Origin: a virus
Lineage: Duplodnaviria > Heunggongvirae > Uroviricota > Caudoviricetes
Length of the DNA: 47,812 nucleotides
Virus record (IMG/VR): IMGVR_UViG_649989947_000010
Span: 1 to 47,812 of that record
Direction: 5' to 3' (one strand)
The position numbers were made by a program, and so were the translations under genes. Numbering within the stretch: position 1 is the stretch's first letter; each line of letters begins with the position of its first letter. Under the pieces are notes generated by a model. That model ran no database searches. It saw only the letters and a program-made list of their open reading frames with translations, and had not been told where the DNA came from. Positions 22,918 to 47,770 of the stretch are shown here, piece by piece.

Positions 22918-24246
22918 CTGATGAATCCCCTAATGATTTTGGTAAAAATCATTAAGTTAAGGTGGATACACATCTTGTCATATGATCAAATGGTTTCGCG
23001 AAAAATCAATAATCAGACAACAAGATGTGCGAACTCGATATTTTACACGACTCTCTTTACCAATTCTGCCCCGAATTACACTTAAAACGACTCAACAGCT
23101 TAACGTTGGCTTGCCACGCATTACTTGACTGTAAAACTCTCACTCTTACCGAACTTGGCCGTAACCTGCCAACCAAAGCGAGAACAAAACATAACATCAA
23201 ACGAATCGACCGATTGTTAGGTAATCGTCACCTCCACAAAGAGCGACTCGCTGTATACCGTTGGCATGCTAGCTTTATCTGTTCGGGCAATACGATGCCC
23301 ATTGTACTTGTTGACTGGTCTGATATTCGTGAGCAAAAACGACTTATGGTATTGCGAGCTTCAGTCGCACTACACGGTCGTTCTGTTACTCTTTATGAGA
23401 AAGCGTTCCCGCTTTCAGAGCAATGTTCAAAGAAAGCTCATGACCAATTTCTAGCCGACCTTGCGAGCATTCTACCGAGTAACACCACACCGCTCATTGT
23501 CAGTGATGCTGGCTTTAAAGTGCCATGGTATAAATCCGTTGAGAAGCTGGGTTGGTACTGGTTAAGTCGAGTAAGAGGAAAAGTACAATATGCAGACCTA
23601 GGAGCGGAAAACTGGAAACCTATCAGCAACTTACATGATATGTCATCTAGTCACTCAAAGACTTTAGGCTATAAGAGGCTGACTAAAAGCAATCCAATCT
23701 CATGCCAAATTCTATTGTATAAATCTCGCTCTAAAGGCCGAAAAAATCAGCGCTCGACACGGACTCATTGTCACCACCCGTCACCTAAAATCTACTCAGC
23801 GTCGGCAAAGGAGCCATGGGTTCTAGCAACTAACTTACCTGTTGAAATTCGAACACCCAAACAACTTGTTAATATCTATTCGAAGCGAATGCAGATTGAA
23901 GAAACCTTCCGAGACTTGAAAAGTCCTGCCTACGGACTAGGCCTACGCCATAGCCGAACGAGCAGCTCAGAGCGTTTTGATATCATGCTGCTAATCGCCC
24001 TGATGCTTCAACTAACATGTTGGCTTGCGGGCGTTCATGCTCAGAAACAAGGTTGGGACAAGCACTTCCAGGCTAACACAGTCAGAAATCGAAACGTACT
24101 CTCAACAGTTCGCTTAGGCATGGAAGTTTTGCGGCATTCTGGCTACACAATAACAAGGGAAGACTTACTCGTGGCTGCAACCCTACTAGCTCAAAATTTA
24201 TTCACACATGGTTACGCTTTGGGGAAATTATGAGGGGATCTCTCAG
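22918..24246 (+). mobile_element. IS10 (IS4 family), complete 1329-bp copy
   Basis: Outside end CTGATGAATCCCCTAATGATTTTGG at 22918; inside end ...GGGGATCTCTCAG ending 24246; 402-aa transposase. Confidence 0.95.
23025..24233 (+). CDS. IS10 transposase
   Basis: 402 aa beginning MCELDILHDSLYQFCPELHLKRL, as recalled for IS10/Tn10 transposase. Confidence 0.95.
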   Translation: MCELDILHDSLYQFCPELHLKRLNSLTLACHALLDCKTLTLTELGRNLPTKARTKHNIKRIDRLLGNRHLHKERLAVYRWHASFICSGNTMPIVLVDWSDIREQKRLMVLRASVALHGRSVTLYEKAFPLSEQCSKKAHDQFLADLASILPSNTTPLIVSDAGFKVPWYKSVEKLGWYWLSRVRGKVQYADLGAENWKPISNLHDMSSSHSKTLGYKRLTKSNPISCQILLYKSRSKGRKNQRSTRTHCHHPSPKIYSASAKEPWVLATNLPVEIRTPKQLVNIYSKRMQIEETFRDLKSPAYGLGLRHSRTSSSERFDIMLLIALMLQLTCWLAGVHAQKQGWDKHFQANTVRNRNVLSTVRLGMEVLRHSGYTITREDLLVAATLLAQNLFTHGYALGKL

Positions 24247-25383
24247 AGCTTAACGTTGGCCTGCCACGCCTTACTTGACTGTAAAACTCTCACTCTTACC
24301 GAACTTGGCCGTAACCTGCCAACCAAAGCGAGAACAAAACATAACATCAAACGAATCGACCGATTGTTAGGTAATCGTCACCTCCACAAAGAGCGACTCG
24401 CTGTATACCGTTGGCATGCTAGCTTTATCTGTTCGGGCAATACGATGCCCATTGTACTTGTTGACTGGTCTGATATCCGTGAGCAAAAACGGCTTATGGT
24501 ATTGCGAGCTTCAGTCGCACTACACGGTCGTTCTGTTACTCTTTATGAGAAAGCGTTCCCGCTTTCAGAGCAATGTTCAAAGAAAGCTCATGACCAATTT
24601 CTAGCCGACCTTGCGAGCATTCTACCGAGTAACACCACACCGCTCATTGTCAGTGATGCTGGCTTTAAAGTGCCATGGTATAAATCCGTTGAGAAGCTGG
24701 GTTGGTACTGGTTAAGTCGAGTAAGAGGAAAAGTACAATATGCAGACCTAGGAGCGGAAAACTGGAAACCTATCAGCAACTTACATGATATGTCATCTAG
24801 TCACTCAAAGACTTTAGGCTATAAGAGGCTGACTAAAAGCAATCCAATCTCATGCCAAATTCTATTGTATAAATCTCGCTCTAAAGGCCGAAAAAATCAG
24901 CGCTCGACACGGACTCATTGTCACCACCCGTCACCTAAAATCTACTCAGCGTCGGCAAAGGAGCCATGGGTTCTAGCAACTAACTTACCTGTTGAAATTC
25001 GAACACCCAAACAACTTGTTAATATCTATTCGAAGCGAATGCAGATTGAAGAAACCTTCCGAGACTTGAAAAGTCCTGCCTACGGACTAGGCCTACGCCA
25101 TAGCCGAACGAGCAGCTCAGAGCGTTTTGATATCATGCTGCTAATCGCCCTGATGCTTCAACTAACATGTTGGCTTGCGGGCGTTCATGCTCAGAAACAA
25201 GGTTGGGACAAGCACTTCCAGGCTAACACAGTCAGAAATCGAAACGTACTCTCAACAGTTCGCTTAGGCATGGAAGTTTTGCGGCATTCTGGCTACACAA
25301 TAACAAGGGAAGACTTACTCGTGGCTGCAACCCTACTAGCTCAAAATTTATTCACACATGGTTACGCTTTGGGGAAATTATGA
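24208..25383 (+). pseudogene. N-terminally truncated IS10 transposase ORF with chimeric start
   Basis: ORF starts inside the 3' end of copy 1 and reads across the junction; lacks the first ~27 native codons. Confidence 0.7.
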
Positions 25384-26605: not shown

Positions 26606-27279
26606 TGGCACCCACAATTTATCACCGTATCGACGGTACCAAATACAGGAATGTCTGGGTTGTTGGTGATCTGCATGGTTGCTACACCAGACTGATGTCC
26701 GAACTCCATCGTGTGGATTTTGACCCGGCGCAGGATTTACTGATATCGGTCGGCGACCTTATCGATCGCGGTACTGAAAATGTCGAATGTCTGGAACTAT
26801 TGCAGATGCCCTGGTTCAGGGCAGTGATGGGGAACCATGAGCGGTTGATGCTCGATGCGTTAAGTCCTGATGGCAACGTGAATAACTGGCTAATGAATGG
26901 TGGACAATGGTTCTTCATGTTGGACACTGATCAGGAAATATTAGCCAGGGCGCTGGTGGAGCTGGTAAGACGTCTGCCCTATATCATTGAGTTGAACACC
27001 GGGCAAGAAACTATCGTTATAGCCCATGCCGACTATCCGGATAATGAATATCAATTCGGTAAGGAGGTGCCGCTTTTCAACGTTGTCTGGGCGCGCGAGC
27101 GTATCAGTGATTCGATGGATGATATTGGTGGCGAAATTTCGGGCGCAGATCGTTTTATCTTTGGTCACACTCCGGTGAAAAGCCCGAAGACATTCTGGAA
27201 TCAGCATTATATCGACACTGGTGCCGTATTTTGCGGAAACCTGACATTGATCAAAGTGAAAGGTGATGGTGCAGCATGA
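26587..27279 (+). CDS. ppp: Ser/Thr protein phosphatase (lambda-phosphatase-like metallophosphoesterase)
   Basis: GDLHG, GDLIDRG, GNHE motifs; near-colinear with recalled lambda PPase; alternative starts at 26602/26605. Confidence 0.85.
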
Positions 27280-27977
27280 AGATTGCTTTAGTTCTTCGCT
27301 CTGGTGGTGACTATAACGCTTCCGATGTGCAGTGGCTGGTTAATCAACTGCCAAAAGGCTATGAAATTATTTGCCTGACAGACCTGAAGCGTTTACATGT
27401 ACCTGGCGTCAAAGTTATCCCATTGATCAACCAGTGGCAAAAGTGCCGTGGCTGGTGGGCGAAAATCGAGTTGTTCCGACCGGATATAACCGATGATCTG
27501 TTCTATCTGGATTTGGACACGGTTATTGCCGGTGATATACGCCCAATCCTTGAGAATCCACCAACCAGCTTCACCATGCTTAGGGATTTTTACCATCCAC
27601 AATATCGTGGTAGCGGTGCCCTGTGGATACCAAATAGTGTAAAAGCGCATATCTGGAGTGCATTCTGGCAAGATCCGGAAGGTTGGATTGCTCGTTGTGT
27701 TACTACTGAATGCTGGGGTGATCAGGGGTTTTTGCGGAAGGTTATGGGTGATGATACACCAGCATTTCAGGATCTGTATCCAGGATGGTTTGTAAGTTAC
27801 AAGGCCGATGTTGTGGAACCTGGTTCAAAATATGCGAGCGCGCGTTACTCCAGGGGGAATGGGACATTACCAAAGGACTGCCGAATAATCTTTTTCCACG
27901 GCAAACCGCGGCCTCGCGAAGTGTCAGAGGATTGGCTTCCCCTCATTAGCTCGTTTTTTGAGCGAGAATCAGAATAA
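27276..27977 (+). CDS. Putative GT-A-type glycosyltransferase (DxD motif)
   Basis: FYLDLDTVI DxD-like motif; start overlaps ppp stop. Confidence 0.4.
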
Positions 27978-27978
27978 T

Positions 27979-27995
27979 ATTGCTCTAATAATTCC
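27979..27995 (+). promoter_or_regulatory. C1 operator-like site (ATTGCTCTAATAATTCC)
   Basis: 14/17 to consensus; immediately after the GT-A-like gene stop. Confidence 0.55.
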
Positions 27996-28002
27996 ATATT
28001 TT

Positions 28003-28034
28003 TAAAACGTGATGTACACTCATCACGTTTTTTA
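28003..28034. terminator. Bidirectional rho-independent terminator
   Basis: AAAACGTGATG-TACACT-CATCACGTTTTTT. Confidence 0.65.
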
Positions 28035-28044
28035 TTAGAGCAAT
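28028..28044 (-). promoter_or_regulatory. C1 operator-like site, inverted relative to 27979
   Basis: Plus strand TTTTTTATTAGAGCAAT, 15/17 to reverse consensus. Confidence 0.55.
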
Positions 28045-28058
28045 CCATAAGGTGCACT

Positions 28059-28277
28059 ATGTGGCCATTCCGACGGAAATATCACTACTGGCTGATCGCC
28101 TTTGTTACGCCGACCGGCGGTATCAGGCATGTCATCACCAGGTATCGCAACAAGAGACTCACCTTAGCCAGAATTTTACAGGCTGCCATAGGTGAGGGAC
28201 TGGATACAAATTGCGTAGTCCTTCCTCCTTCATACTTAGGAAAAATGACCGAAGCACAAGCTAATACGGAACTTTGA
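28059..28277 (+). CDS. Small hypothetical protein (72 aa)
   Basis: ORF between operator pair and the 420-aa gene. Confidence 0.35.
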   Translation: MWPFRRKYHYWLIAFVTPTGGIRHVITRYRNKRLTLARILQAAIGEGLDTNCVVLPPSYLGKMTEAQANTEL

Positions 28278-28278
28278 A

Positions 28279-29541
28279 ATGAGCACTTCAGCACAAAACC
28301 AATCAATCGAAAATGTATCTATCCCTGATGTCCTGAATGCCGGTATCCCGGCCATTATCCAGAACATCCGGGCCGCGCAACGCCGCGTTAGTTGTGATGA
28401 CCTCACAGCACGTTTTTTTGATAATGCGGTTCAGTCAGCGGAGATGCTTCACGCACAGCTTATTGATGTTTATAACGCAGAAGCTGATAGCCATAACTCC
28501 CTGGTAGATGCAGCTGAAAATATGCAGTTGGATCTCGGTCTGAAGGGTAAAGAAATTGAAGAGCTTCATCTGCAAATTGAACATTTGAAACGCCAGCAAC
28601 AGGACGCGATCGACGATGCGACGCATGACGCCAACCAGCGTGCTGATAATGCCGAACGTATAAGCATTGAGCTGGAAACAAAACTCAATGAAATGACCGC
28701 GATGGTTGAACTGCGGAACTCACAGATTTCAACGCTAAAATCTCAATATAAAGAGATCATGAAACTTGATCCTTTTAACCTTGAGAAACGCTATAACAAA
28801 GCTAAAAGCGAGCGACAGGAACTGCGTAAGCAGGTCGCCGACCTTAACCAACAGCTCAAAAAAACTATTAAAGATGCAAGCGAGGCGCGCGTGGCATTTG
28901 CTAATAAAAAAGCAGAGGTTACCGCGCTGGTTAATGAGAATGCCAAATTTGCGACGCTCAAGAAGGAAATGTATGGCATTACTGAGCGCCGTTTCCCTGC
29001 AAGCAAACTCCATCCGACGTTAGGGCAAATCTCATTCTTCCCGCGCCTCCTGGCTTATGGGATCTCATCGCCTAAAGAGTTCAATAACGAGCGTCCTTAT
29101 ATCGTTTCTAAGCTGGACTTTGCTTATCAGTTCTGCTGCGACATGGGCTATGCCATTGATATCCGTATCAACGAATGGTTGATGCCAAACTTCCAGCCGT
29201 TGGCAATTTTCCGCGAGTTCCAGCCGGAAGGTTGGGTAGAGTTCTTCCATGAATTGATCTGTAAAGAGATGGAAAGCCGCCGCCCGGAATTGGTCCGTCG
29301 AGTTGAGTGGGCGCAAGAGGTTATGTTGGCAGATGCAGAGCTGCCGTTCGAACCGGAATTCATTGATGATCTGGCAACTAAAGGGTTGCATACCCTGTTT
29401 GATGTGGTTACCCGCCGTCATGAGCAGTTGGTTGTCGAATTGGGTTTAGAGGAAACAGCGGCAAGAAGACTTCTCGATGTTTGCTATGCACGTAGCGATG
29501 CATGGGAAAAAGAGAACGGCGGCACTATTTACGTTCGCTGA
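28279..29541 (+). CDS. Coiled-coil protein with uncharacterised C-terminal domain (420 aa)
   Basis: Long heptad-like charged N-terminal region (residues ~90-220), then a ~200-aa globular domain; no recognised motif. Confidence 0.5.
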   Translation: MSTSAQNQSIENVSIPDVLNAGIPAIIQNIRAAQRRVSCDDLTARFFDNAVQSAEMLHAQLIDVYNAEADSHNSLVDAAENMQLDLGLKGKEIEELHLQIEHLKRQQQDAIDDATHDANQRADNAERISIELETKLNEMTAMVELRNSQISTLKSQYKEIMKLDPFNLEKRYNKAKSERQELRKQVADLNQQLKKTIKDASEARVAFANKKAEVTALVNENAKFATLKKEMYGITERRFPASKLHPTLGQISFFPRLLAYGISSPKEFNNERPYIVSKLDFAYQFCCDMGYAIDIRINEWLMPNFQPLAIFREFQPEGWVEFFHELICKEMESRRPELVRRVEWAQEVMLADAELPFEPEFIDDLATKGLHTLFDVVTRRHEQLVVELGLEETAARRLLDVCYARSDAWEKENGGTIYVR

Positions 29542-29560
29542 TAGTTACAGTGTCACTTTT

Positions 29561-29596
29561 AATGCTGGTGGAGTGCGCCCACCAGCATTTTTTTCG
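29561..29596 (+). terminator. Rho-independent terminator (11-bp perfect stem)
   Basis: AATGCTGGTGG-AGTGCGC-CCACCAGCATT followed by TTTTTTCG. Confidence 0.75.
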
Positions 29597-29613
29597 TCCA
29601 ATGAGGAGGGCAT

Positions 29614-30120
29614 TTGAGTATTTTCAATAAACACGCACACCAGGAACGTCCGTACATCGTCATAGTAGATATTGATGGGACGATATCAGAGGCAACGGAA
29701 GACAGGCTGCATTTACTTCCACCACCTGGCAAAGGTGCATTAACAGAGCACTGGAACGAGTTTAACCTTGCCTGTGACACTGATGCTCCCATCACTCCAG
29801 TTATTGATATGGTGCGCCAGTTGTCCGGCATTTACACCCTCTGGTTTGTAACCGGGCGCTGTGAGATAGCCAGGGATAAAACACGAGCCTGGTTGCGTAA
29901 GCACGTAACAAACGGGGCTGAGCCTTTGCTATCTATGCGTCCTGCTACCGATGATAGAAATGACGGCCCAGCAAAGATTGATCTCCTTAAGAAAATTGGT
30001 CTAAGTAAAATCGCGTTCGCGCTGGAAGATAAGATTGAAGTGGCGCGTGTTTTCAGGAGTCACGGCGTACTTACGTTAATGGTCAGGGAGTATGAAAACG
30101 CGCTTCTCCATCAACAATAA
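29614..30120 (+). CDS. HAD-superfamily phosphatase/nucleotidase-like protein
   Basis: TTG start with strong RBS GAGGAGGG; VIVDIDGT (DxDGT) nucleophile motif. Confidence 0.55.
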   Translation: MSIFNKHAHQERPYIVIVDIDGTISEATEDRLHLLPPPGKGALTEHWNEFNLACDTDAPITPVIDMVRQLSGIYTLWFVTGRCEIARDKTRAWLRKHVTNGAEPLLSMRPATDDRNDGPAKIDLLKKIGLSKIAFALEDKIEVARVFRSHGVLTLMVREYENALLHQQ

Positions 30121-30136
30121 TTGCTCTAATAAATCT
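30120..30136 (+). promoter_or_regulatory. C1 operator-like site (ATTGCTCTAATAAATCT)
   Basis: 16/17; overlaps the stop of the HAD-like gene. Confidence 0.65.
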
Positions 30137-30218
30137 TGATTTTTAAAACAGAGAAAGTGAAAATAAAAACATGCCGCAAGGCGCGGCATGTATCCAATCA
30201 ATCACAGGAGCTGAAAAT

Positions 30219-30305
30219 ATGAACACGGCATTCAAAATCATTATGGCCGCGATCTATTTCTGGCTGTTCTCTATCACTTTTGGCGGCATTGTCGCGCATG
30301 GGTAA
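30219..30305 (+). CDS. 28-aa hydrophobic peptide
   Basis: MNTAFKIIMAAIYFWLFSITFGGIVAHG; RBS AGGAG 7 nt upstream; not in supplied ORF track (below length cutoff). Confidence 0.4.
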   Translation: MNTAFKIIMAAIYFWLFSITFGGIVAHG

Positions 30306-30314
30306 GGGGGATGC

Positions 30315-31043
30315 ATGAAAGGCGAAGTGAAAGAGCGCGGCATGATTTTCAACGATGAGATGGTCCGGGCCATCATCGAAGGAAGGAAAACGCAGACGCG
30401 GCGGATAATGAAAAATCAGCCTGCGGAAGTTGGTCCAGAAGCACCAGTGATGGTTAGAAAAATTGGTGCAGGTTTTCAGTGGTACGGGGCTGATGGTGTA
30501 AGCAGTGTCTTCAATTGCCCCTTTGGTATCGTCGGCGATCGAATTTGGGTTCGTGAAACATGGGCGATATTAGGCAATGAGGATGGTTGTAGTGTGGACT
30601 GGAACGACAACCTTTGTCGTGGTGATGAGAAGAACGCAGCAAGGATTTATCGGGCCAGTTGTGAGCAAAAGCCTGGTGATTACGGCTTATGGTCGATACC
30701 CGATGATGCCGACTGGAAACCTCACACTGTGAATGAAAAGTTTGATGGTGGGTGGCGTCCATCAATTCACATGCCGCGATGGGCATCACGCATTCTGTTG
30801 GAAATTACCAACGTGCGCGTTGAGCGGTTGAACGATATCAGCGAATGCGATGCAGGGGCTGAGGGCGTTCCGCCTGCTGGAAGTTTGCTTCCTGATTACC
30901 CGGAAACATTCCTTACTCCCAAGGGGGATTTCGCAATGGCCAAGGTTGCGTTCCAGCGTCTGTGGGAATCCATCTATGGTGAAGAAAGCTGGAACGCTAA
31001 TCCCTGGGTATGGGTAATTGAGTTTAAGCGCATTCAGGAATAA
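30315..31043 (+). CDS. Phage protein, possibly ASCH/PUA-like
   Basis: N-terminus MIFNDEMVRAIIEGRKTQTRR resembles ASCH GxKxxExR-type motif; weak. Confidence 0.35.
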   Translation: MKGEVKERGMIFNDEMVRAIIEGRKTQTRRIMKNQPAEVGPEAPVMVRKIGAGFQWYGADGVSSVFNCPFGIVGDRIWVRETWAILGNEDGCSVDWNDNLCRGDEKNAARIYRASCEQKPGDYGLWSIPDDADWKPHTVNEKFDGGWRPSIHMPRWASRILLEITNVRVERLNDISECDAGAEGVPPAGSLLPDYPETFLTPKGDFAMAKVAFQRLWESIYGEESWNANPWVWVIEFKRIQE

Positions 31044-31052
31044 ACCGTGAGT

Positions 31053-31232
31053 ATGCATCAAGTCGTCAGCTTTTCAGGTGACGGGATTGCCAGAATGTAT
31101 GCCGACAGCGACTACAGAAATTTGTATCAGGCGATGGTGCAGGCCAAGCGGTTTGATACTGGTTCGTGTTCCGAATCATGTGAAATCTGGGGTGACCAAT
31201 TGGAGTTGAAATTCGAAGAGGTTGTGGCATGA
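31053..31232 (+). CDS. Small hypothetical protein
   Basis: ORF in tightly packed operon. Confidence 0.3.
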   Translation: MHQVVSFSGDGIARMYADSDYRNLYQAMVQAKRFDTGSCSESCEIWGDQLELKFEEVVA

Positions 31233-31432
31233 CAATCGTAAAAACCCATACCGGTACCGTGATCACCAAAGATGGCCCGCAGGTAAAAAAACTGCACCAA
31301 ACAGAGCGGATGTGGGTCGTTGGCAAAAACGAGTTTTACCACAAAGAAACTGGACGCCGCCATTTTGCAGAAAATACGCGCCGCCGACTGCTGTTAGACA
31401 CCATCAAGCCTATCGAGGTGAAGCATGTTTAA
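31229..31432 (+). CDS. Small hypothetical protein
   Basis: ORF with overlapping stop/start to neighbours. Confidence 0.3.
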   Translation: MTIVKTHTGTVITKDGPQVKKLHQTERMWVVGKNEFYHKETGRRHFAENTRRRLLLDTIKPIEVKHV

Positions 31433-31664
31433 ACAGAACGAAAAAGCTATCGCTCAAATTGCTGATTATATCCCGCGTGCGTGCCGGGGTATGCAGTTGC
31501 AGGAAGCCAAAGCGCGCCTGGAGAAAAAAATTGCGCTCTATATTGATGACGGCTGTGATGCCGCCGTTCTTAACGAGGCGTTCGCACCAGCTCTTAACAG
31601 TCATACTCGGGAGTCCTTTCTTTCGTGCATCGCAGCGCAACTCCACCAAGGAGGCATCCAGTGA
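31425..31664 (+). CDS. Small hypothetical protein
   Basis: ORF with GTGA overlap to next gene. Confidence 0.3.
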   Translation: MFKQNEKAIAQIADYIPRACRGMQLQEAKARLEKKIALYIDDGCDAAVLNEAFAPALNSHTRESFLSCIAAQLHQGGIQ

Positions 31665-32305
31665 GTAACCGTTTTTACATGATGTGCTTGCGTGAAACTG
31701 TGGGTAATAACGCCTCATTCCATTGCCATAACGGCAATGGTTACAGTTCTGATATCGATCGCGCTCATGTTTACACGCTGGAAGAAGCCCAAAAAGCCTG
31801 GAATTGTGGGCGAGATATCGATCAGCCTGTTTGTGCCGATAGTGTGGATGCAATTGCTGTGTGGCACGTTGATTGCCAGTACATCCCTACAGAAAGCCTG
31901 ATTGAGTCAGATTGCACTGCGTATGTGGCCTACAAAAAAGGTAGCTGGAACGGCAACGATGTTTACTGGCTTCAACACGGTGGATTGCCAACAGATGATT
32001 TCAGTAAAGCGACCATCTTTAGCGTCGCCAACAAAAACGAACCAGGAATAGTTTGGTTGCCATTTCCCATTGCTGATGCAGCAAAGCGCCGGACGTTCAA
32101 TATCAATAACTTTAACCGCAGAACAATGGTTCAGGGCGCAGGTTTGGTCATGCCTGACTGGTTGAAAGAGCAGAACAGAAGAAAGAAGTCGCGAAGCGGG
32201 AAGGTGCGTTGGAATTGTCCGCATTGCGGAAAAATCACCTGGCAGTACAGCCCATATGATTTTGAAGGCTGTAGTGATTACAACTGTGAAGGATGGCGAG
32301 AATGA
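31661..32305 (+). CDS. Cys-rich hypothetical protein
   Basis: GTG start at 31661 with RBS AAGGAGG; C-terminal CPHCG...C..C cluster. Confidence 0.4.
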   Translation: MSNRFYMMCLRETVGNNASFHCHNGNGYSSDIDRAHVYTLEEAQKAWNCGRDIDQPVCADSVDAIAVWHVDCQYIPTESLIESDCTAYVAYKKGSWNGNDVYWLQHGGLPTDDFSKATIFSVANKNEPGIVWLPFPIADAAKRRTFNINNFNRRTMVQGAGLVMPDWLKEQNRRKKSRSGKVRWNCPHCGKITWQYSPYDFEGCSDYNCEGWRE

Positions 32306-32985
32306 CAATTGACTATCAGGTACTGCGCGAGGCGGCGGAACAGGCAACGCAAGATGAATGGGTAGCATATATTTTGCCGGGGCAAAACGGCACTTATCCT
32401 GCGCATACGTCTGAGGGTAGGCATTGCGGATACTTTATTGACTGGCCTGGCATTGATGGACAGAGAAACGCTGGTGCCAATGCCCGTTATATCGCGGCTA
32501 TCCCACCCAAAGTTGTGCTGGCTCTACTGGATGAAATTAAGCGCCTGGAGGACACAAATATTGATGCTATGTGTCGAATTGCAGAGCTTGAGACTAATCT
32601 CGCGGCGCTGGTGGCGGAGAATGTGGGGCTAAAGGCGATATGTGATGACCGTCGCAGGTTCATCATGAATGGGGTGCAGATGGGTTATATCAAGGTGCCA
32701 GCAGCGGAAACAGATCCAGACCTTGAGACAATTCGCATTGCTATATCACCACAAAAGCCCATTCCAGCCACTGATGCTTTCCTGTCTGAAGTGCGGGCGC
32801 AGGGGGTGGATGCTGCTATAGAAGCTGCAAAAAATCTGGTGGTCCAAGAATATGAGTATAAGGATTTCAAAGCGGCGCAGAGTGATTGCTGTATGCACCC
32901 TGGTTCAGACCTGGTAGGGAAGGTTGAAATGACTGAGTGGTTAGTTGACTTTGCTGCCCAGCTTCGCAAAGGAGGCAACCAGTGA
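32293..32985 (+). CDS. Ea22-like early protein, paralog 1
   Basis: N-terminus DYQVLREAAEQATQDEW shared with next gene (DHQALREAAEQAMHDDW). Confidence 0.45.
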   Translation: MARMTIDYQVLREAAEQATQDEWVAYILPGQNGTYPAHTSEGRHCGYFIDWPGIDGQRNAGANARYIAAIPPKVVLALLDEIKRLEDTNIDAMCRIAELETNLAALVAENVGLKAICDDRRRFIMNGVQMGYIKVPAAETDPDLETIRIAISPQKPIPATDAFLSEVRAQGVDAAIEAAKNLVVQEYEYKDFKAAQSDCCMHPGSDLVGKVEMTEWLVDFAAQLRKGGNQ

Positions 32986-33557
32986 GCAAAATTGACCATC
33001 AGGCACTGCGTGAGGCGGCAGAGCAGGCAATGCATGACGACTGGGGATTTGACGCGGACCTTTTCCATGAGCTGGTAACACCATCGATTGTGCTGGAACT
33101 GCTGGATGAACAGGAAAGAAACCAGCAATACATCAAACGTCGCGACCAGGAGAACGAGGATATTGCGCTAACGGTAGGGAAACTGTTAATCGAAAACGGT
33201 CAGCTTGTTGCCGATACGCTACGCCACTTAGCTGATAACGAAATCGACTCTGATTATTTTGCTATCACCTCAACGAATGAGAACGGTACTGAAATTGATC
33301 ATGAGATGGCTATTACCGATTACGCACTGCAAGCTGCCGGAACTGTAGACGAATTGGTTGCAGCGCTGGAATCCGCAGAGAAGCGCATAGCAGAACTGTC
33401 TGCTAGCCACAGCAAATTGCGCGACACAATGGCTGGCATCCACAACACAATCCGAATGGATGGCGGATATACGCCACTGACAGCAATCCTTAACGCTGCT
33501 AAACGCGCATATGAAGAATCAGCAAGCGCAGCTGGCATTCGCATCAAAGGAGAGTGA
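32982..33557 (+). CDS. Ea22-like early protein, paralog 2
   Basis: Shared N-terminal motif; coiled-coil middle. Confidence 0.45.
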   Translation: MSKIDHQALREAAEQAMHDDWGFDADLFHELVTPSIVLELLDEQERNQQYIKRRDQENEDIALTVGKLLIENGQLVADTLRHLADNEIDSDYFAITSTNENGTEIDHEMAITDYALQAAGTVDELVAALESAEKRIAELSASHSKLRDTMAGIHNTIRMDGGYTPLTAILNAAKRAYEESASAAGIRIKGE

Positions 33558-33558
33558 T

Positions 33559-34074
33559 ATGGCGTTAACACACCGCGAACTCTGTCAGATTGCGTACAAG
33601 TTCCTTAAGCGCAACGGGTTCAAGGTTTGTTTTCATGACCGCTTTATAGCTGTAACCAGTACCGGAGAACAGCCAGATGCTATGGGATTCAGAAATTCAG
33701 CATCATGCCTGATAGAGGCGAAATGTTCTCGTGCTGACTTGTTGGCAGATAGAAAAAAGCGTTTTCGTAAAAATCCGTCTCTTGGAATGGGAGACTGGCG
33801 ATTCTTTATTAGTGAGCCGGGAATTATTTCAATTGAGGATTTACCACCTGGCTGGGGATTACTTCACGTTGTTAACGGAAGAGTACGGAAAGTACATGGG
33901 TGGCCCAAGGGTAATTGCTGTTGGGGTAATCCTGACGATAAGCCATTTACTGGAAATAAGCAGGTTGAATGCGATTACATGTTATCTGCATTAAGGCGCA
34001 TGGAGTTGAGAGGGCACCTTAATGAAATATATGACGGTGTAATTGTTAATAAGAAAGAAGGAAACGCGGCATGA
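33559..34074 (+). CDS. Putative PD-(D/E)xK-fold nuclease
   Basis: QPDAMGF ... CLIEAKCSRADL gives PD...(E)AK arrangement; RBS AAGGAGAG. Confidence 0.35.
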   Translation: MALTHRELCQIAYKFLKRNGFKVCFHDRFIAVTSTGEQPDAMGFRNSASCLIEAKCSRADLLADRKKRFRKNPSLGMGDWRFFISEPGIISIEDLPPGWGLLHVVNGRVRKVHGWPKGNCCWGNPDDKPFTGNKQVECDYMLSALRRMELRGHLNEIYDGVIVNKKEGNAA

Positions 34075-34478
34075 ACACTTTCACCGACAAAGAATTGATT
34101 AAAGAAATCAAAGAACGTATAGGCAGCCTGGACGTGCGAGACAATATTGAGCGCCGTGCTTATGAAATAGCGTTAGCCTCGCTGGAAGCTGAACCGGTGG
34201 CATGGCAGGTCACAATCACAAAAGACGGCCTGGACTCAGCCTCTATTATTTACCGTGACTGTGCAGAGAAAGATACATGGGTTCGGATACATGAGACACT
34301 TGGTTCTGTCGTACATGTCACCCCGCTTTACATGGCGTCGCCAGTGCCTGTAGTGCCGGAAGAAAAAACAATGCCTAATCCTCTTAGCATGTACGCGGTT
34401 GATGCTGTTGCCGCTATTGCAGAGGTAAGAGGCTGGAATGCCTGCCGCGCGGCTATGCTTCATGGGAAAGGAAAGTGA
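34071..34478 (+). CDS. Hypothetical protein sharing N-terminal module with 34911 gene
   Basis: YEIALASLEAEPVAW vs YKIALASLEAEPVAY in the 423-aa protein. Confidence 0.4.
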   Translation: MNTFTDKELIKEIKERIGSLDVRDNIERRAYEIALASLEAEPVAWQVTITKDGLDSASIIYRDCAEKDTWVRIHETLGSVVHVTPLYMASPVPVVPEEKTMPNPLSMYAVDAVAAIAEVRGWNACRAAMLHGKGK

Positions 34479-34479
34479 T

Positions 34480-34701
34480 ATGGCTAACTCATTACTTGAA
34501 ACCTGCAACAACTGGCAGATTCAGAGGGCGGAGATTTTATCTCGCAATCCAGATATGGCAATGACAATTGATAATCTGGACACGCTAATTGAACGGACCG
34601 TGCGTTCTGCAATTGATATAGCACATCGAGTGGATTGGGATTTCAGAGAAGCGGAGCGGCTTGCTAAAGAGCAGGAGAAAGCAGCGGGTAAAGGAGACTG
34701 A
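34480..34701 (+). CDS. Small hypothetical protein
   Basis: ATG at 34480 overlapping upstream stop. Confidence 0.3.
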   Translation: MANSLLETCNNWQIQRAEILSRNPDMAMTIDNLDTLIERTVRSAIDIAHRVDWDFREAERLAKEQEKAAGKGD

Positions 34702-34702
34702 T

Positions 34703-34900
34703 ATGGATAAAAACACCACTGCTTACTGGAATCTGTCACTTGATACCGAATGCCCAAAATGCGGTCACAATTTCGATCTGCTTTGTGATCCAGATTTCTG
34801 GGAATTTTCTGGAGCAAAACAGGCATGTGAAGAAATAAAAGGTTACGAAACATGCTGTCCAGAATGTAACCATGAATTTAAAACAGATTTTGTGTATTGA
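34703..34900 (+). CDS. Small zinc-ribbon protein
   Basis: CPKCGH ... CCPECNH. Confidence 0.35.
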   Translation: MDKNTTAYWNLSLDTECPKCGHNFDLLCDPDFWEFSGAKQACEEIKGYETCCPECNHEFKTDFVY

Positions 34901-34910
34901 GGCATAACGA

Positions 34911-36182
34911 ATGACCACTTTTACTAAAGAACAATTAATAGAGATGATTAAGCGCAATATAACGATTATGGATCGTTATCCTGATTTAGTAACTGCACAA
35001 ATGGATCTGGAAGTATACAAAATTGCGCTGGCATCACTGGAAGCAGAACCAGTTGCTTATATTTTCAAACATCCGGCCGGGAAATTATTCTGGGCTTTAA
35101 CGGATGAAAGCAATAAAGAGCAAGCGGACGTTATTCCTGTTTATGCTGCCGCGCCTGCGTCGGTTGTGCCGGATAATGCATCAGAGCCTCTTGCTTATGC
35201 TTACAAAGAGCTTACGCCTGAGATTATGCGCAACCATTTAGCTGTATTCGAGCGATATGGAATAGCCCCAAACGATAGCTCTACCACAATTCAGGCACTG
35301 CGAATCGCGCTGGATGGTATAGAGCGGAGCGACGCCATGCTTCAGTCCGGAAACTTTCGGGAAAACAAGAATTCGTCAACCAATAATTTTCGGGAAATCG
35401 CGGAAACGTCAACCAACTATCCGGTAATTCCTAGTGAGGTGTTGTCCGCAATCCTGAAGGTTGCCAAGATTCGTGCCGATTTCGATGATTTTGACGGTGA
35501 CAGGCGAGGTATCGATGATTGTCTGGATGAGGCTGAGCAAGAGCTTATCGTTACCATTAACAAATATGCCAGTCAGTTGGCAGCAGAACCGATAGCGACT
35601 AATGACGTTCGAGAGCAAACAGCCGTTCCGCCAGTTCCGGTAATACAGGCTGATGTCGCGCAGGCAATTGAAAAACTCAAACGGAAATTAGTGGAATGCA
35701 ATCGCTATAACTACTGCGCAGATGCAGTTAAAGGCGTTGAGGATGCCTGCCGTGCTGTTAGCTATAGCCATGCCGACAATCAACCAGCATCTGGCAACCA
35801 GGCAGCCGAATCCAATCGCGGTAATGAGTGGACCGGCAATCCTGATATTGATAACGCCATCATCATGCTCGATCGCATAGATACGCTGGAAAGTTGCGAT
35901 GATGACCGTATTGAGGCTGTTAAGGCTGTTTTGCGTAGACTAGCTGGCAACTCTCCGGTAACTCCGGATGGTTGGATAAGCTGTAGTGAGCGAATGCCGG
36001 ATACCAAAACAGCCGTTCTTGTTGCCGTGGAGTTTGACAGGAAAGGTGACTGGCGAATGAAATGGGCTACTTACATCCCGGGGCATCCTGACGCTAATGA
36101 TGGGTGGATAATTCCTGGTGCGTCGTGGAAACCGTCACACTGGATGCCGCTACCAGAACCGCCGCAGGAGGTGAATCAATGA
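34911..36182 (+). CDS. Hypothetical protein (423 aa) with Ea22-like N-terminal module
   Basis: Shared N-terminal motif with 34071 gene; no recognised catalytic motif. Confidence 0.45.
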   Translation: MTTFTKEQLIEMIKRNITIMDRYPDLVTAQMDLEVYKIALASLEAEPVAYIFKHPAGKLFWALTDESNKEQADVIPVYAAAPASVVPDNASEPLAYAYKELTPEIMRNHLAVFERYGIAPNDSSTTIQALRIALDGIERSDAMLQSGNFRENKNSSTNNFREIAETSTNYPVIPSEVLSAILKVAKIRADFDDFDGDRRGIDDCLDEAEQELIVTINKYASQLAAEPIATNDVREQTAVPPVPVIQADVAQAIEKLKRKLVECNRYNYCADAVKGVEDACRAVSYSHADNQPASGNQAAESNRGNEWTGNPDIDNAIIMLDRIDTLESCDDDRIEAVKAVLRRLAGNSPVTPDGWISCSERMPDTKTAVLVAVEFDRKGDWRMKWATYIPGHPDANDGWIIPGASWKPSHWMPLPEPPQEVNQ

Positions 36183-36262
36183 GCTGGCCTGAAGCATTCA
36201 CCACGGTAGGAATTGTGATGGCGGCAGCACTGGGTTTGTATTCAATTTGTCGCTGGTGGTAA
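36179..36262 (+). CDS. 27-aa hydrophobic peptide, translationally coupled (ATGA overlap)
   Basis: MSWPEAFTTVGIVMAAALGLYSICRWW; RBS GGAGGTG; not in ORF track. Confidence 0.4.
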   Translation: MSWPEAFTTVGIVMAAALGLYSICRWW

Positions 36263-36264
36263 CG

Positions 36265-36498
36265 ATGGGAAAAATAACTTTTGTAGTCGAATTTGAGGAT
36301 GGTAAAGAGCCACCTGTTAGCGCCAATCTTGATGTTGCTGGTGGCAGGCTTGTTTCGGTTCTATTTGGTGACTACCGAGATGATTTCTTCCAACCAGAAG
36401 AAGTTGATGTGGTGCGAGAGGCATTAAACGAGTTAAGTGTTGATAACGATGATGCTCATGCGGAAATCATCCAAAAAATGGAGCTGCTAACTCACTAA
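36265..36498 (+). CDS. Small acidic hypothetical protein
   Basis: ORF 36247..36498 trimmed to internal ATG. Confidence 0.3.
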   Translation: MGKITFVVEFEDGKEPPVSANLDVAGGRLVSVLFGDYRDDFFQPEEVDVVREALNELSVDNDDAHAEIIQKMELLTH

Positions 36499-36546
36499 AT
36501 TATCAATTATGGTGCTATCACCTACGACACCGAGAGAAAATTTATA

Positions 36547-36669
36547 ATGTCAAAAGTAAATGTTTTGATTTTTTCAGCAATTGTTGGCTTTGGTTTTACT
36601 GCCGGAGTGCAGATTTATATTACGTGGGAAAAAATCATCAACTACGCATGGAGTTGTTTTATTAAGTGA
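36547..36669 (+). CDS. 40-aa hydrophobic peptide
   Basis: MSKVNVLIFSAIVGFGFTAGVQIYITWEKIINYAWSCFIK; weak RBS. Confidence 0.3.
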   Translation: MSKVNVLIFSAIVGFGFTAGVQIYITWEKIINYAWSCFIK

Positions 36670-36676
36670 GGTAAGT

Positions 36677-36970
36677 ATGTGGAGAGGTAATAGTCATGGC
36701 AAAAGCCAGATGATACTTACCGAATATCAGCTCGACCACAAAACCAATAAATCACGTTCAGTATATTTGCTTCGCCACAATAGCCGCGTAAGGAATACCG
36801 TACTGGAGCAAAATCTGACCGTTGAAATGGATAATTACGGGGGCTTCAAGCCAACAATATCGCTTGATGATTTTCCTCGTGGTTTAAGCGAAAGAGAAGC
36901 AATGCTGAAATTAGCAGAATGGCTACAAAGATTAAGCATTGCTATTGAAGATAACTGGTCTGAACCTTAA
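36677..36970 (+). CDS. Small hypothetical protein
   Basis: ATG at 36677 with RBS GAGGTAAG. Confidence 0.35.
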   Translation: MWRGNSHGKSQMILTEYQLDHKTNKSRSVYLLRHNSRVRNTVLEQNLTVEMDNYGGFKPTISLDDFPRGLSEREAMLKLAEWLQRLSIAIEDNWSEP

Positions 36971-36976
36971 ATTAAT

Positions 36977-37351
36977 ATGATGACACTAAAACATTTTCTT
37001 GACCGCCCATTATGGGCGGCAGCCGCAGGCTATGACTTTAATTATATGGATTGCATGTCTTATACTGCCAATGCATACGACCATTCGTTCAGCCTGCTGT
37101 TTAATTCTTTAAGAATATTGCCGGAAACAGAAGTTGGAGAGCTTCATTTATGGATATTGGGCTTTATCGCGGCTGTCGTTGGTATTGCTGTATGGCCTTT
37201 TATTTTCTGGCTGGTGGCTGTTGTAGTGTGGTTTAAGTGCAAGACATACCGGAGAAAGTATTTCTTAGGTGATGGAATGACTGATATTGCCAAAATGAAC
37301 ATTGAAAAATGGACTAAGGAATGTGAAAAGAAATGGCGCAAAAAGAAATGA
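36977..37351 (+). CDS. Membrane protein (124 aa)
   Basis: Hydrophobic stretch LWILGFIAAVVGIAVWPFIFWLVAVVVWF, basic C-terminus. Confidence 0.4.
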   Translation: MMTLKHFLDRPLWAAAAGYDFNYMDCMSYTANAYDHSFSLLFNSLRILPETEVGELHLWILGFIAAVVGIAVWPFIFWLVAVVVWFKCKTYRRKYFLGDGMTDIAKMNIEKWTKECEKKWRKKK

Positions 37352-38271
37352 CCAGAATCACTGAAGAGCGTATATCAGAGATTATTTCCCGTATCGAAAT
37401 GTATGGTCACGGTGCTGGATATACGGCAGATGAAGTATTGGCACTTGCCCAAATGGCTTTGGCGGCTTGCAAAGATGATAAAAAAATGAAGCTTATCGAC
37501 TTGTTAGTGAAGGAGCTGCCTAAGTGCGGCGGGTGGCCTGATGGAATGAGTTATTGTTACCTACCCAGTGTCAATTTAATGGCACCATGCGCGACTTTTG
37601 CTTTTGGCTCAGACCACAAAAAAGACACTTTCTTTGGGCGCAATTTTTGTTGTGAGATTGAGCTTCCAATTGGTGACCTTGATAGCGATGAATACCAGTC
37701 AGTTGTCACTCGCGAACAATACGAATCAGCTCTCATAGCGTCGCAGAAAGTCGAGTTCAATGGTGATGAACCTGAAAGTAAGACTTACAGGTTGGATTTT
37801 GGGCAATGGCTGGAACAGCAACGCGGAAAGATCGATGTGGACTGTGGTTGTGTGTCCACTGAAACATTCATGCACTGGCTGCGGGTAGCTTACGAGGCTG
37901 GCAACTATCCGGATATTCCGGATAGTTCGGTGTCAGCGCCAGGAAAGGGCGTCACCGGTGGACGTATCCGCATTAAGCCGCATGTTTATCGCGAACTGGT
38001 TAACCGTCTCCACGATACAGCGATCAAGTGTGCTGGCACCCAGCAATTACGAGAAAGAATTAGCCGTGTTTTGGGCGACGTTATTACGCCAGATCATCAT
38101 AAACAAGCCGAGAAAAGTGGCTTGGAAAGGTGTCACCTTGAGGCGGCATTAAACATTAAGCCGGGGCATACGCTTGGCATTATTGATGCACTATTGGTTC
38201 ATAAGATGGCCAGGGCTTTATTGCCGCTGGTGGCTGAAAAGCATGAGGCGGACCATGCCAACGAAAGCTGA
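37333..38271 (+). CDS. Hypothetical protein (312 aa)
   Basis: ORF in operon; no recognised domain. Confidence 0.4.
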   Translation: MAQKEMTRITEERISEIISRIEMYGHGAGYTADEVLALAQMALAACKDDKKMKLIDLLVKELPKCGGWPDGMSYCYLPSVNLMAPCATFAFGSDHKKDTFFGRNFCCEIELPIGDLDSDEYQSVVTREQYESALIASQKVEFNGDEPESKTYRLDFGQWLEQQRGKIDVDCGCVSTETFMHWLRVAYEAGNYPDIPDSSVSAPGKGVTGGRIRIKPHVYRELVNRLHDTAIKCAGTQQLRERISRVLGDVITPDHHKQAEKSGLERCHLEAALNIKPGHTLGIIDALLVHKMARALLPLVAEKHEADHANES

Positions 38272-47660: not shown

Positions 47661-47677
47661 TAATTTATTAGAGCAAT
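47661..47677 (-). promoter_or_regulatory. C1 operator (plus strand TAATTTATTAGAGCAAT)
   Basis: 16/17 to reverse consensus, upstream of coi. Confidence 0.7.
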
Positions 47678-47753
47678 TGTCAAACAACTATGAAAAACAA
47701 TCCAGTTTTTGGCTGGTGGAGTGGGATTTTTCTCTCAAAATTTATTGCTCTAA

Positions 47754-47770
47754 TAATTCTTGATTTTTAT
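47754..47770 (+). promoter_or_regulatory. C1 operator-like site (ATTGCTCTAATAATTCT)
   Basis: 15/17; same variant as the 27979 site. Confidence 0.6.

Follow-up and report, generated by a model that had tools for sequence, protein, structure and literature searches.

The region analyzed here, positions 27979-30136 of a 47,812-nucleotide stretch of viral DNA (the window, by which that whole stretch is meant), is the annotated pmgR-pmgS-pap operon of a P1-type plasmid prophage, shut off by the P1 C1 repressor. Nucleotide comparison shows 98.3% identity to phage P1 over 100% of the region length, and the coordinates match OpmgRa, OpmgRb, pmgR, pmgS, pap and OpmgT of the P1 record AF234172, base for base. 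That GenBank record, which dates from 2004, already lists pmgR, pmgS and pap together with a predicted promoter and the C1 operators Op86a, Op86b and Op88. The locus is already known and is ordinary for the P1-type phage family; the domain assignment of PmgS and the contexts of its family are a minor addition to it. The explanation that we consider probable as a whole is a C1-gated pmgR-pmgS-pap unit in which PmgS would be a DNA-binding accessory protein and Pap a 3'-phosphatase.

All three genes lie on the plus strand. The 72-residue PmgR is encoded at 28059-28277, with no nucleotide or amino-acid difference from P1. The ORF of pmgS (28279-29541; 420 residues) begins with an ATG one nucleotide past the pmgR stop codon, and pap (29614-30120; 168 residues) starts with a TTG preceded, at a distance of 4 nt, by a Shine-Dalgarno sequence GAGGAGG (29603-29609, plus strand) that was read from the sequence. 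PmgS and Pap differ from their P1 counterparts by two and eight amino acids, respectively; at the nucleotide level, pap has accumulated more changes (23 of 507 positions) than pmgS (10 of 1,263). The elements listed in an earlier note on this DNA, namely a 72-aa and a 420-aa ORF, a strong terminator, and a HAD-type ORF with a TTG start, a strong RBS and a DxDGT motif, are thus all present, and motif counts and folding place the operators (27979-28044 and 30120) and the terminators where it had put them.

The three sites that bracket the genes are C1 repressor operators, placed over or next to the promoters of early operons. OpmgRa (former Op86a; ATTGCTCTAATAATTCC) occupies 27979-27995 on the plus strand and was recovered by motif enrichment, in agreement with a protein_bind feature of the P1 record. 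OpmgRb (former Op86b; ATTGCTCTAATAAAAAA), also in the P1 record, is found at 28028-28044 on the minus strand, inverted with respect to OpmgRa, with which it forms a 13-nt inverted repeat (I2) of 100% complementarity. OpmgT (former Op88; ATTGCTCTAATAAATCT), identified by motif enrichment and in the P1 record, occupies 30120-30136 on the plus strand; it overlaps pap by a single base, the third of the stop codon, and would gate the next operon (pmgT). Membership was defined as a 17-bp asymmetric site matching ATTGCTCTAATAAATTT, from which the sites at 27979-27995, 28028-28044 and 30120-30136 deviate by three, three and one mismatches, and the 12-mer core is exact in all three. With up to one mismatch, this core, TTGCTCTAATAA, occurs eight times in the window against an expectation of 0.22, a count reached in none of 100 shuffles; the 17-mer consensus with up to three mismatches occurs 11 times, against 0.19 expected. 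Because the same three sites are annotated as C1 operators in the P1 and P7 GenBank records, the earlier proposal that the cassette is gated by a repressor is borne out.

The predicted sigma-70 promoter PpmgR (27980-28008, plus strand; annotated as predicted in AF234172) consists of a -35 hexamer TTGCTC (27980-27985), a 17-bp spacer and a -10 hexamer TAAAAC (28003-28008); a generic consensus promoter scan did not detect it. Op86a covers its -35 hexamer, as Op88 covers that of P2pmgT, and the 30-nt operator-promoter module of PpmgR is repeated at 30120-30149 with 87% identity. An inverted operator-like pair between pmgQ and pmgR is kept in a Pantoea relative whose PmgS is only 51% identical, and the same gap holds, by eye, a weaker and imperfect hairpin-like inverted repeat.

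Between the inverted operators, folding reveals a terminator-like hairpin with a U run (28004-28033, plus strand), in which an 11-bp stem (28004-28014/28021-28031) has a free energy of -13.4 kcal/mol (z = -5.5). A consensus terminator scan missed the hairpin at 28004-28031, and its free U tail is shorter than that of the intrinsic terminator 3' of pmgS (29561-29596, plus strand). The latter was found by both the consensus scan and folding, and comprises 11 pairs, six of them G-C, at 29561-29589, followed by seven T residues (-18.1 kcal/mol, z = -4.0). Both structures have the form of a Rho-independent terminator, a stable G+C-containing hairpin with a U run directly after it. The upstream hairpin should block transcription that enters from the ppp-pmgQ operon. 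Transcripts from the predicted promoter PpmgR should, by position, lack the 5' arm of this hairpin, which overlaps the -10 hexamer.

These elements suggest how the unit might be expressed. In the lysogenic state, PpmgR would be silenced by C1 sitting on Op86a, which covers the -35 hexamer, and on Op86b, just past the start site, while the hairpin between the operators would end transcripts arriving from ppp-pmgQ. Transcripts from PpmgR, if the predicted promoter is correctly placed, would start within the hairpin and hence escape termination, and upon derepression pmgR and pmgS would be translated as a coupled pair. Since pap lies beyond a strong terminator, its transcription would depend on read-through or on an unmapped promoter. 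A late, Lpa-dependent P1 promoter ahead of pap was considered and rejected; comparison of the segment 29540-29560 with the boxes annotated for LPhot and LPpmgL gives no match to the AAGTTACTT box there, and therefore no late-promoter claim is made for pap.

The first gene of the operon is a morphogenesis gene, and the cassette is not purely accessory. Deletion of pmgR yields no infectious virions and leaves tails and incomplete heads, so that the gene is essential (PMC9024508). PmgR matches the profile phrog_3177, and scans of Pfam, NCBIfam and PADLOC gave nothing beyond coiled-coil noise. Homologues of PmgR are found upstream of pmgS-like genes in D6 and in the loci L007, L008, L010 and L020, and the pairing of the two genes, as traced by homology, persists in diverged P1/D6-like elements. 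Many PmgS relatives occur without any PmgR. Small ORFs ahead of the PmgS-like genes of L009 and phiARM81mr were rejected as PmgR homologues, as they do not align with PmgR. A survey of 77 P1-like phage-plasmids counts both pmgR and pmgS with the 21 genes that are best conserved (PMC9603915).

PmgS appears to be a long coiled-coil protein that ends in a helix-hairpin-helix (HhH) domain resembling the N-terminal domain of RAD51 and the C-terminal domain of the RNA polymerase alpha subunit (alpha-CTD). The predicted layout comprises a coiled coil (residues ~40-232), a middle domain (~233-350) and a C-terminal (HhH)2-like domain (~355-412). In the AlphaFold model, which is of moderate confidence (mean pLDDT 72), continuous helices span residues 40-160 and 166-232, consistent with the coiled-coil N-terminal half that had been proposed; the middle domain has no structural match. 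A sequence search against the PDB returned nothing for PmgS, and direct Pfam and NCBIfam scans gave only coiled-coil noise. The profile of PHROG 1660 matches the protein over its full length (residues 1-420, E = 3.7e-195), and an exhaustive homologue search collected 118 clusters, mostly of 370-550 residues, that share the architecture. Remote homology of the C-terminal domain, suggested earlier as a check, emerged from the family profile, which matches the RAD51 N-terminal domain (1.5e-7) and the RNA polymerase alpha-CTD (7.3e-7); Pfam HHH_5 is matched by 11 and RNA_pol_A_CTD by 10 of 38 family members. P1 PmgS itself falls below the threshold of every Pfam HhH model, and the HhH assignment is thus that of the family profile together with the moderate-confidence model. 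Across 38 diverse members only L75, P165, G233, P336, R341 and W409 are near-invariant, and the protein therefore carries no catalytic signature.

From these properties, PmgS may be a non-enzymatic, oligomeric DNA-binding accessory protein that probably aids PmgR in the completion of filled heads, or else works on DNA during replication or packaging. The one basis for proposing a functional link between PmgS and PmgR is the adjacency of their genes.

Pap is predicted to be a HAD 3'-phosphatase of the T4 Pnkp type, encoded as a stand-alone protein. Its DIDGT motif is located at residues 19-23, and the protein scores 44.1 bits against Pfam PF25109 (HAD_PNKP), above the gathering cut-off of 27.6. 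The family profile retrieves Pnkp1 (4xrp, 2.8e-6) and T4 Pnkp (5uj0, 5.3e-6; 1ltq, 3.5e-5) from the PDB, and the top 18 Foldseek matches of the Pap model, itself poor (mean pLDDT 60), are all Pnkp1 or T4 Pnkp (4xrp, 5uj0, 2ia5, 1ltq and 1rrc; E-values 1.4e-6 to 7e-5). By these matches, the HAD protein groups with polynucleotide 3'-phosphatases rather than with nucleotidases, the alternative posed in the earlier note. The family alignment shows no variation at D19, D21, T23, R31, C54, D57, T80, R82, D117, K121, E138 and D139, and HAD motifs I-IV are all present (D19-I-D21-G-T23, T80-G-R82, K121 and E138-D139) and align to those of T4 Pnkp. The 168 residues align only to residues ~157-292 of T4 Pnkp, which constitute its phosphatase domain, and Pfam and NCBIfam scans found neither a kinase domain nor a kinase-family match. 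The database label '5'-polynucleotide kinase', as found on homologues, is thus incorrect when applied to Pap. The enzyme would strip 3'-phosphates from nucleic-acid ends or from 3'-nucleotides.

The second and third genes are dispensable under laboratory conditions. In-frame deletions of pmgS and of pap, which are among 24 other knockouts without defect, leave plaquing and antirestriction unchanged (PMC9024508), and CRISPRi knock-down classifies both as non-essential (PMC10695390). Because neither deletion nor CRISPRi is harmful, pmgS and pap show no phenotype in the laboratory, the outcome that the earlier note had named as speaking against its own proposal. Of the functions suggested there, neither abortive infection nor anti-defence has direct support, and PADLOC and NCBIfam scans yield nothing but coiled-coil noise.

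A related reading, which we judge possible but rather unlikely, is that pmgS, pap or both are conditional counter-defence or repair genes, useful only on hosts with a matching defence. Pap might repair the 3'-phosphate or 2',3'-cyclic phosphate termini that host nucleases, anticodon nucleases for instance, produce, and PmgS might bind DNA as a shield or disturb a host system. In T4, Pnkp heals the ends of tRNAs that PrrC, an anticodon nuclease of the host, has cleaved, and Pap belongs to the same family. Both genes are early and repressor-controlled, and their conservation in nature is strong even though they can be dispensed with on K-12. In L010, moreover, PmgS, PmgR and Pap have diverged faster (26-31% identity) than the neighboring PmgQ (55%), and PmgS relatives adjoin orphan DNA methyltransferase and DarB-type antirestriction genes. 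Against this, a kinase or ligase partner for Pap is found neither among the selected ORFs of the window nor in the annotation of ~10 kb of the P1 record, antirestriction is unaffected by the deletions, and loss of pmgR, which shares their operon, affects morphogenesis. Known defence-related families are also unmatched: Pap matches no PADLOC model, and the LmuB and JetC matches of PmgS are weak (E 1.7e-4 or weaker) and confined to the coiled coil.

A broader joint reading is more speculative, and we hold it to be unlikely. PmgS would represent a new class among the early proteins of phages, in which an oligomeric coiled coil displays a RAD51-NTD-like HhH domain that binds or bridges DNA in replication, recombination or packaging, or counters a host DNA-directed system; PmgR would be its partner in P1/D6-like phage-plasmids, and Pap would heal ends, being needed only against host nucleases that leave 3'-phosphates. 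If so, the 'head completion' defect of pmgR deletions would really be one of DNA processing or packaging.

That PmgS is the missing prohead scaffold or head-size determinant of P1, acting with PmgR in head assembly, is improbable. The D6 record labels its homologue a 'putative prohead scaffolding protein', P1 has no known scaffold, and heads are affected by the pmgR deletion; PmgS is long and helical, and is absent from the main text of the virion-proteome paper (PMC9024508). The pmgS deletion, however, causes no plaquing defect, the P1 capsid protein sheds a 120-residue N-terminal part that is thought to serve as scaffold, and the promoter annotated for the operon is an early one under C1 control, with no late one annotated. 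The genomic contexts argue in the same direction. In nine contexts outside the closest P1 relatives, PmgS relatives never adjoin capsid, portal or protease genes; their neighbors encode integrase, RecT/exonuclease, methyltransferase, RdgC-like and primase proteins, which suggests that in other temperate phages these genes are placed among those of early DNA metabolism. The RdgC gene beside PmgS in L017 was set aside as context evidence, as it stems from an IS91-associated rearrangement in which PmgS gained 60 residues by fusion and pmgR was lost. Single distant family members used as IMG/VR queries found no related loci, and a scan of genome contigs gave three loci only.

An equally poor prospect is the reading of Pap as a sugar-phosphate phosphatase in a glycosylation pathway with the neighboring, GT-A-like PmgQ. 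PmgQ matches a PHROG labeled 'glycosyltransferase' (1.3e-127) and has a DLD motif, the Pap homologue of L010 lies directly 3' of a CTP_transf_3 cytidylyltransferase gene, and a similar cytidylyltransferase is present in L008. Yet the glycosyltransferase call is a PHROG label only, Pfam, NCBIfam and PADLOC scans of PmgQ gave nothing beyond coiled-coil noise, and the best sequence and structure matches of Pap are all of Pnkp type, including the family-specific CDTD motif. Stand-alone homologues of this kind are present in 1,164 phage records, the majority from T1-like and comparable virulent phages. Finally, the P7 record, in which the genes are called shtA and shtB with the notes 'sheath structure or assembly' and 'sheath contraction', would make pmgR and pmgS tail-sheath genes, but this is almost certainly wrong, being contradicted by the complete tails and incomplete heads of pmgR deletions, the lack of a defect upon pmgS deletion, the absence of PmgS from the main text on the virion proteome, and a putative HhH domain and early-region contexts that do not suit a sheath.

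With an annotation from 2004 and deletion phenotypes published in 2022-2023, the discovery value of the C1-gated unit is small. Its practical value is that the cassette is present in 680 of 5,426 complete E. coli genomes (about one in eight), carried by P1-like phage-plasmids, which spread resistance genes as well. The analysis also corrects misleading database labels: for PmgS these are 'head morphogenesis', 'scaffolding' and 'sheath contraction', and for Pap '5'-polynucleotide kinase' and 'acid phosphatase'.

Comparison with known systems places the unit closest to the P1 operon (AF234172) and to shtA-shtB-pap of P7 (AF503408), which share with it gene order, gene lengths, start codons, operators, the predicted promoter and both hairpins. 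Within the cassette only point differences separate it from P1, whereas the flanks differ by an upstream IS10-type insertion and by another accessory block within and after pmgT. The putative HhH module of PmgS, which would resemble those of RAD51/RadA and of the bacterial alpha-CTD, follows a coiled coil of ~230 residues and an unmatched middle domain, with no ATPase core. With scaffolds of the P22 gp8 type PmgS has in common its length, its helical nature and a small helical C-terminal module; in contrast to them, it is non-essential, is preceded by an early C1-controlled promoter, and has homologues unlinked to capsid genes. Pap shares its HAD fold and motifs with the C-terminal domain of T4 Pnkp/PseT and with Capnocytophaga Pnkp1, its best PDB matches by both sequence profile and Foldseek, at an identity of ~20-22%. 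DxDGT corresponds to D165/D167 of the T4 enzyme, CDTD to residues 184-187, (S/T)GR to S211-R213, the lysine to K258, and (D/E)D to D277-D278. Unlike T4 Pnkp, Pap has no P-loop kinase domain, and its motif IV reads ED instead of DD.

The cassette comprises three open reading frames (ORFs) of 72 aa (pmgR, 28059–28277), 420 aa (pmgS, 28279–29541), and 168 aa (pap, 29614–30120), with pmgS starting 1 nt past the preceding stop codon and pap using a TTG start with GAGGAGG ahead. Upstream lie two 17-bp operators of the C1 repressor in inverted orientation, Op86a (27979–27995, plus strand) and Op86b (28028–28044, minus strand), the latter just 3' of the presumed start site of the promoter PpmgR; the third operator, Op88 (OpmgT), occupies 30120–30136. 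Op86a and Op86b are separated by a hairpin (11-bp stem, −13.4 kcal/mol, z = −5.5) that leads into a U run, and a strong terminator (29561–29589, then T7) is located 3' of pmgS. All features described in the earlier note, namely the operators, the terminators, the three ORFs, and the TTG start with its ribosome-binding site, were confirmed at the locus. The operator core is present at 8 sites in the window with at most one mismatch (0.22 expected), and the 17-mer at 11 sites with at most three (0.19 expected), an enrichment that is not due to chance. Further C1 operators comprise an overlapping (bivalent) pair at 11434–11461 and, close to the window end, two inverted sites spaced about 80 bp (47661–47677 and 47744–47760).

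The −35 hexamer of the predicted PpmgR, TTGCTC (27980–27985), lies within Op86a, and the −10 hexamer, TAAAAC (28003–28008), runs into the hairpin's 5' arm. Because of this overlap, a PpmgR transcript starting about 7 nt downstream of the −10 hexamer would lack the 5' arm and escape termination, and the hairpin would halt read-through from the upstream ppp-pmgQ operon. The 30-nt operator-promoter module of Op86a/PpmgR is present again at Op88. In a Pantoea relative whose PmgS is only 51% identical, an inverted operator-like pair is kept at the same place, together with a weaker, imperfect hairpin-like repeat (recognized by eye, not folded), which argues that the arrangement is functional. A scan beyond the pmgS terminator found no promoter-like site for pap, and this region does not match a late-promoter box. 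A second hairpin with a T7 run (GTTGTGATGACCTCACAGC ACGTTTTTTT) lies inside pmgS about 110 nt past its start (28391–28418); it shares 80% identity with the 3' portion of the hairpin between Op86a and Op86b, and may represent an attenuator within the gene or what is left of a duplication. Past the cassette, the stretch 30166–30305 contains a G+C-rich hairpin (30169–30191) whose U run is confined to the minus strand and which therefore resembles a leftward-acting terminator, the alternative being a hairpin in the 5'-UTR of pmgT mRNA. An unannotated 44-aa ORF with a hydrophobic segment (30171–30305) overlaps this hairpin; the features under the match in the SJ46 record include a 'membrane protein'.

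Of the two classes named in the earlier note for the HAD phosphatase, polynucleotide 3'-phosphatase and nucleotidase, sequence comparison places Pap in the Pnkp-type clade. Pap matches Pfam HAD_PNKP with 44.1 bits (threshold 27.6) and PHROG 'polynucleotide kinase' families via their phosphatase part, and a profile of ten homologues matches Capnocytophaga Pnkp1 and the T4 Pnkp phosphatase domain. The top 18 Foldseek matches of a low-confidence Pap model are likewise Capnocytophaga Pnkp1 or T4 Pnkp. The catalytic residues D19, D21, T80, R82, K121, and E138-D139 are invariant in the family, as is a family-specific CDTD motif. Because Pap lacks a kinase domain, the common label '3'-phosphatase, 5'-polynucleotide kinase' claims too much for it. 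Stand-alone homologues sharing ~30–41% identity were retrieved from 1,164 phage records, among which T1-like and Klebsiella siphoviruses are numerous. Pap is accordingly classified, by sequence, as a stand-alone HAD phosphatase of the Pnkp, end-healing type. A role in sugar-phosphate metabolism is kept as a minor alternative, because the Pap homologue of a diverged P1/D6-like element (L010) comes right after a cytidylyltransferase gene and the upstream neighbour PmgQ resembles a GT-A glycosyltransferase. The label 'acid phosphatase' is unsupported.

The AlphaFold model of PmgS (pLDDT 72) consists of two helices (residues 40–160 and 166–232) with a break at a conserved LDP motif, followed by a small β/α domain and a helical C-terminus. 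An exhaustive HMM search retrieved 118 clusters with a common architecture. Diverse members match Pfam HHH_5 (11/38) and RNA_pol_A_CTD (10/38), and the profile of the 38 members matches the RAD51 N-terminal domain (1.5e-7) and the RNA polymerase alpha CTD (7.3e-7). Near-invariance is limited to six positions, none of which holds a residue typical of catalysis, and a binding or architectural role is probable for PmgS. A PmgR homologue lies immediately 5' of PmgS in the P1/D6-like elements D6, L007, L008, L010, and L020. Other temperate phages and phage-plasmids carry PmgS relatives without PmgR, next to integrase, RecT/exonuclease, YfdP/YfdQ, DNA methyltransferase, RdgC-like, Q, and primase genes, and never adjoining capsid genes. 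These contexts speak against the labels 'head morphogenesis', 'prohead scaffolding' (D6), and 'sheath contraction' (P7), and favour an early, DNA-directed accessory role. In an E. coli plasmid contig (L017, 4099–7022), pmgR is absent and PmgS has a 60-residue N-terminal extension giving a DNA_methylase Pfam match, a fusion that NCBI names 'DNA cytosine methyltransferase'; an RdgC gene lies immediately 5' and an IS91-type transposase close by. This contig is a rearranged P1-like element and probably defective.

Gonzales et al. (2022) constructed 29 in-frame P1 deletions (PMC9024508). The pmgR deletion produced tails along with incomplete heads, a defect that could be complemented in trans, and 24 other deletions, including pmgS, pap, pmgQ, pmgT, and ppp, left plaquing and antirestriction unaffected (PMC9024508). 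A CRISPRi screen also found pmgS and pap non-essential (PMC10695390), and the main text of the virion-proteome paper never mentions PmgS (PMC9024508). No P1 scaffold is known, the suspect being the cleaved N-terminus of the capsid protein. The proposal that these are repressor-gated abortive-infection, anti-defence, or repair genes is partly supported: the gating and an end-healing-type Pap hold. No evidence speaks for abortive infection or anti-defence; pmgR is a known morphogenesis gene, and pmgS and pap have no laboratory phenotype.

Elsewhere, too, the window departs from P1. A ~2.5-kb block not in P1 (22917–25396), between the pmgM and pmgN/pmgO positions, encodes an IS10-type RNA-OUT antisense RNA (22963–23032, minus strand, 98.8 bits) and two successive DDE_Tnp_1 transposase ORFs (23025–24233 and 24208–25383), and has the appearance of IS10-family elements in tandem or partial duplication. 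P1 similarity also stops within pmgT and returns ~6.9 kb on; the insert (31009–37890) encodes two Ead/Ea22-like proteins (32293–32985 and 32982–33557) and a 423-aa DUF551 protein (34911–36182), in agreement with the hypervariable pmgT-humD region of P1-like phage-plasmids (PMC9603915). Three tRNA genes (12119–12191, 12197–12269, and 14273–14345) correspond in location to the tRNA cluster of D6. In the diverged elements L010 (10460–11694) and L008 (10588–11352), CTP_transf_3/NTP_transf_3 cytidylyltransferase genes are found a few genes 3' of pmgS; P1 has no counterpart at the matching position. Across diverged P1-like elements, PmgQ (pmgQ, 27276–27977) is far better conserved (55–69% identity) than PmgR, PmgS, and Pap (26–61%); it carries a DLD motif and matches a PHROG 'glycosyltransferase' family (1.3e-127), with no match in Pfam.

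Along its entire length, the 2.3-kb region shares 97.3–98.9% identity with 19 P1-type phage records. Of 5,426 complete E. coli genomes, 680 carry the cassette, at 699 places of which 685 are on plasmids. The P1 match and the plasmid location identify the window as belonging to a P1-like phage-plasmid, with the cassette as an annotated operon found again; the locus is already known, and pmgR and pmgS are within the 21 most conserved genes across 77 P1-like phage-plasmids (PMC9603915). What is added here is incremental: a putative HhH assignment for PmgS from sequence profiles and modeling, the breadth and contexts of its family, and the stand-alone Pnkp-type class of Pap. The P1 record AF234172 annotates OpmgRa (Op86a), the predicted promoter PpmgR, OpmgRb (Op86b), pmgR, pmgS, pap, and OpmgT (Op88) at matching positions, and P7 carries annotations for the same operators, its genes being called shtA, shtB, and pap. 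Relative to P1, the intergenic stretches show 0–2 base differences, PmgR and its gene are identical, PmgS differs by 2 residues (10/1,263 nt), and Pap by 8 (23/507 nt); the much greater divergence of pap suggests a recombination history separate from that of pmgS and pmgR.
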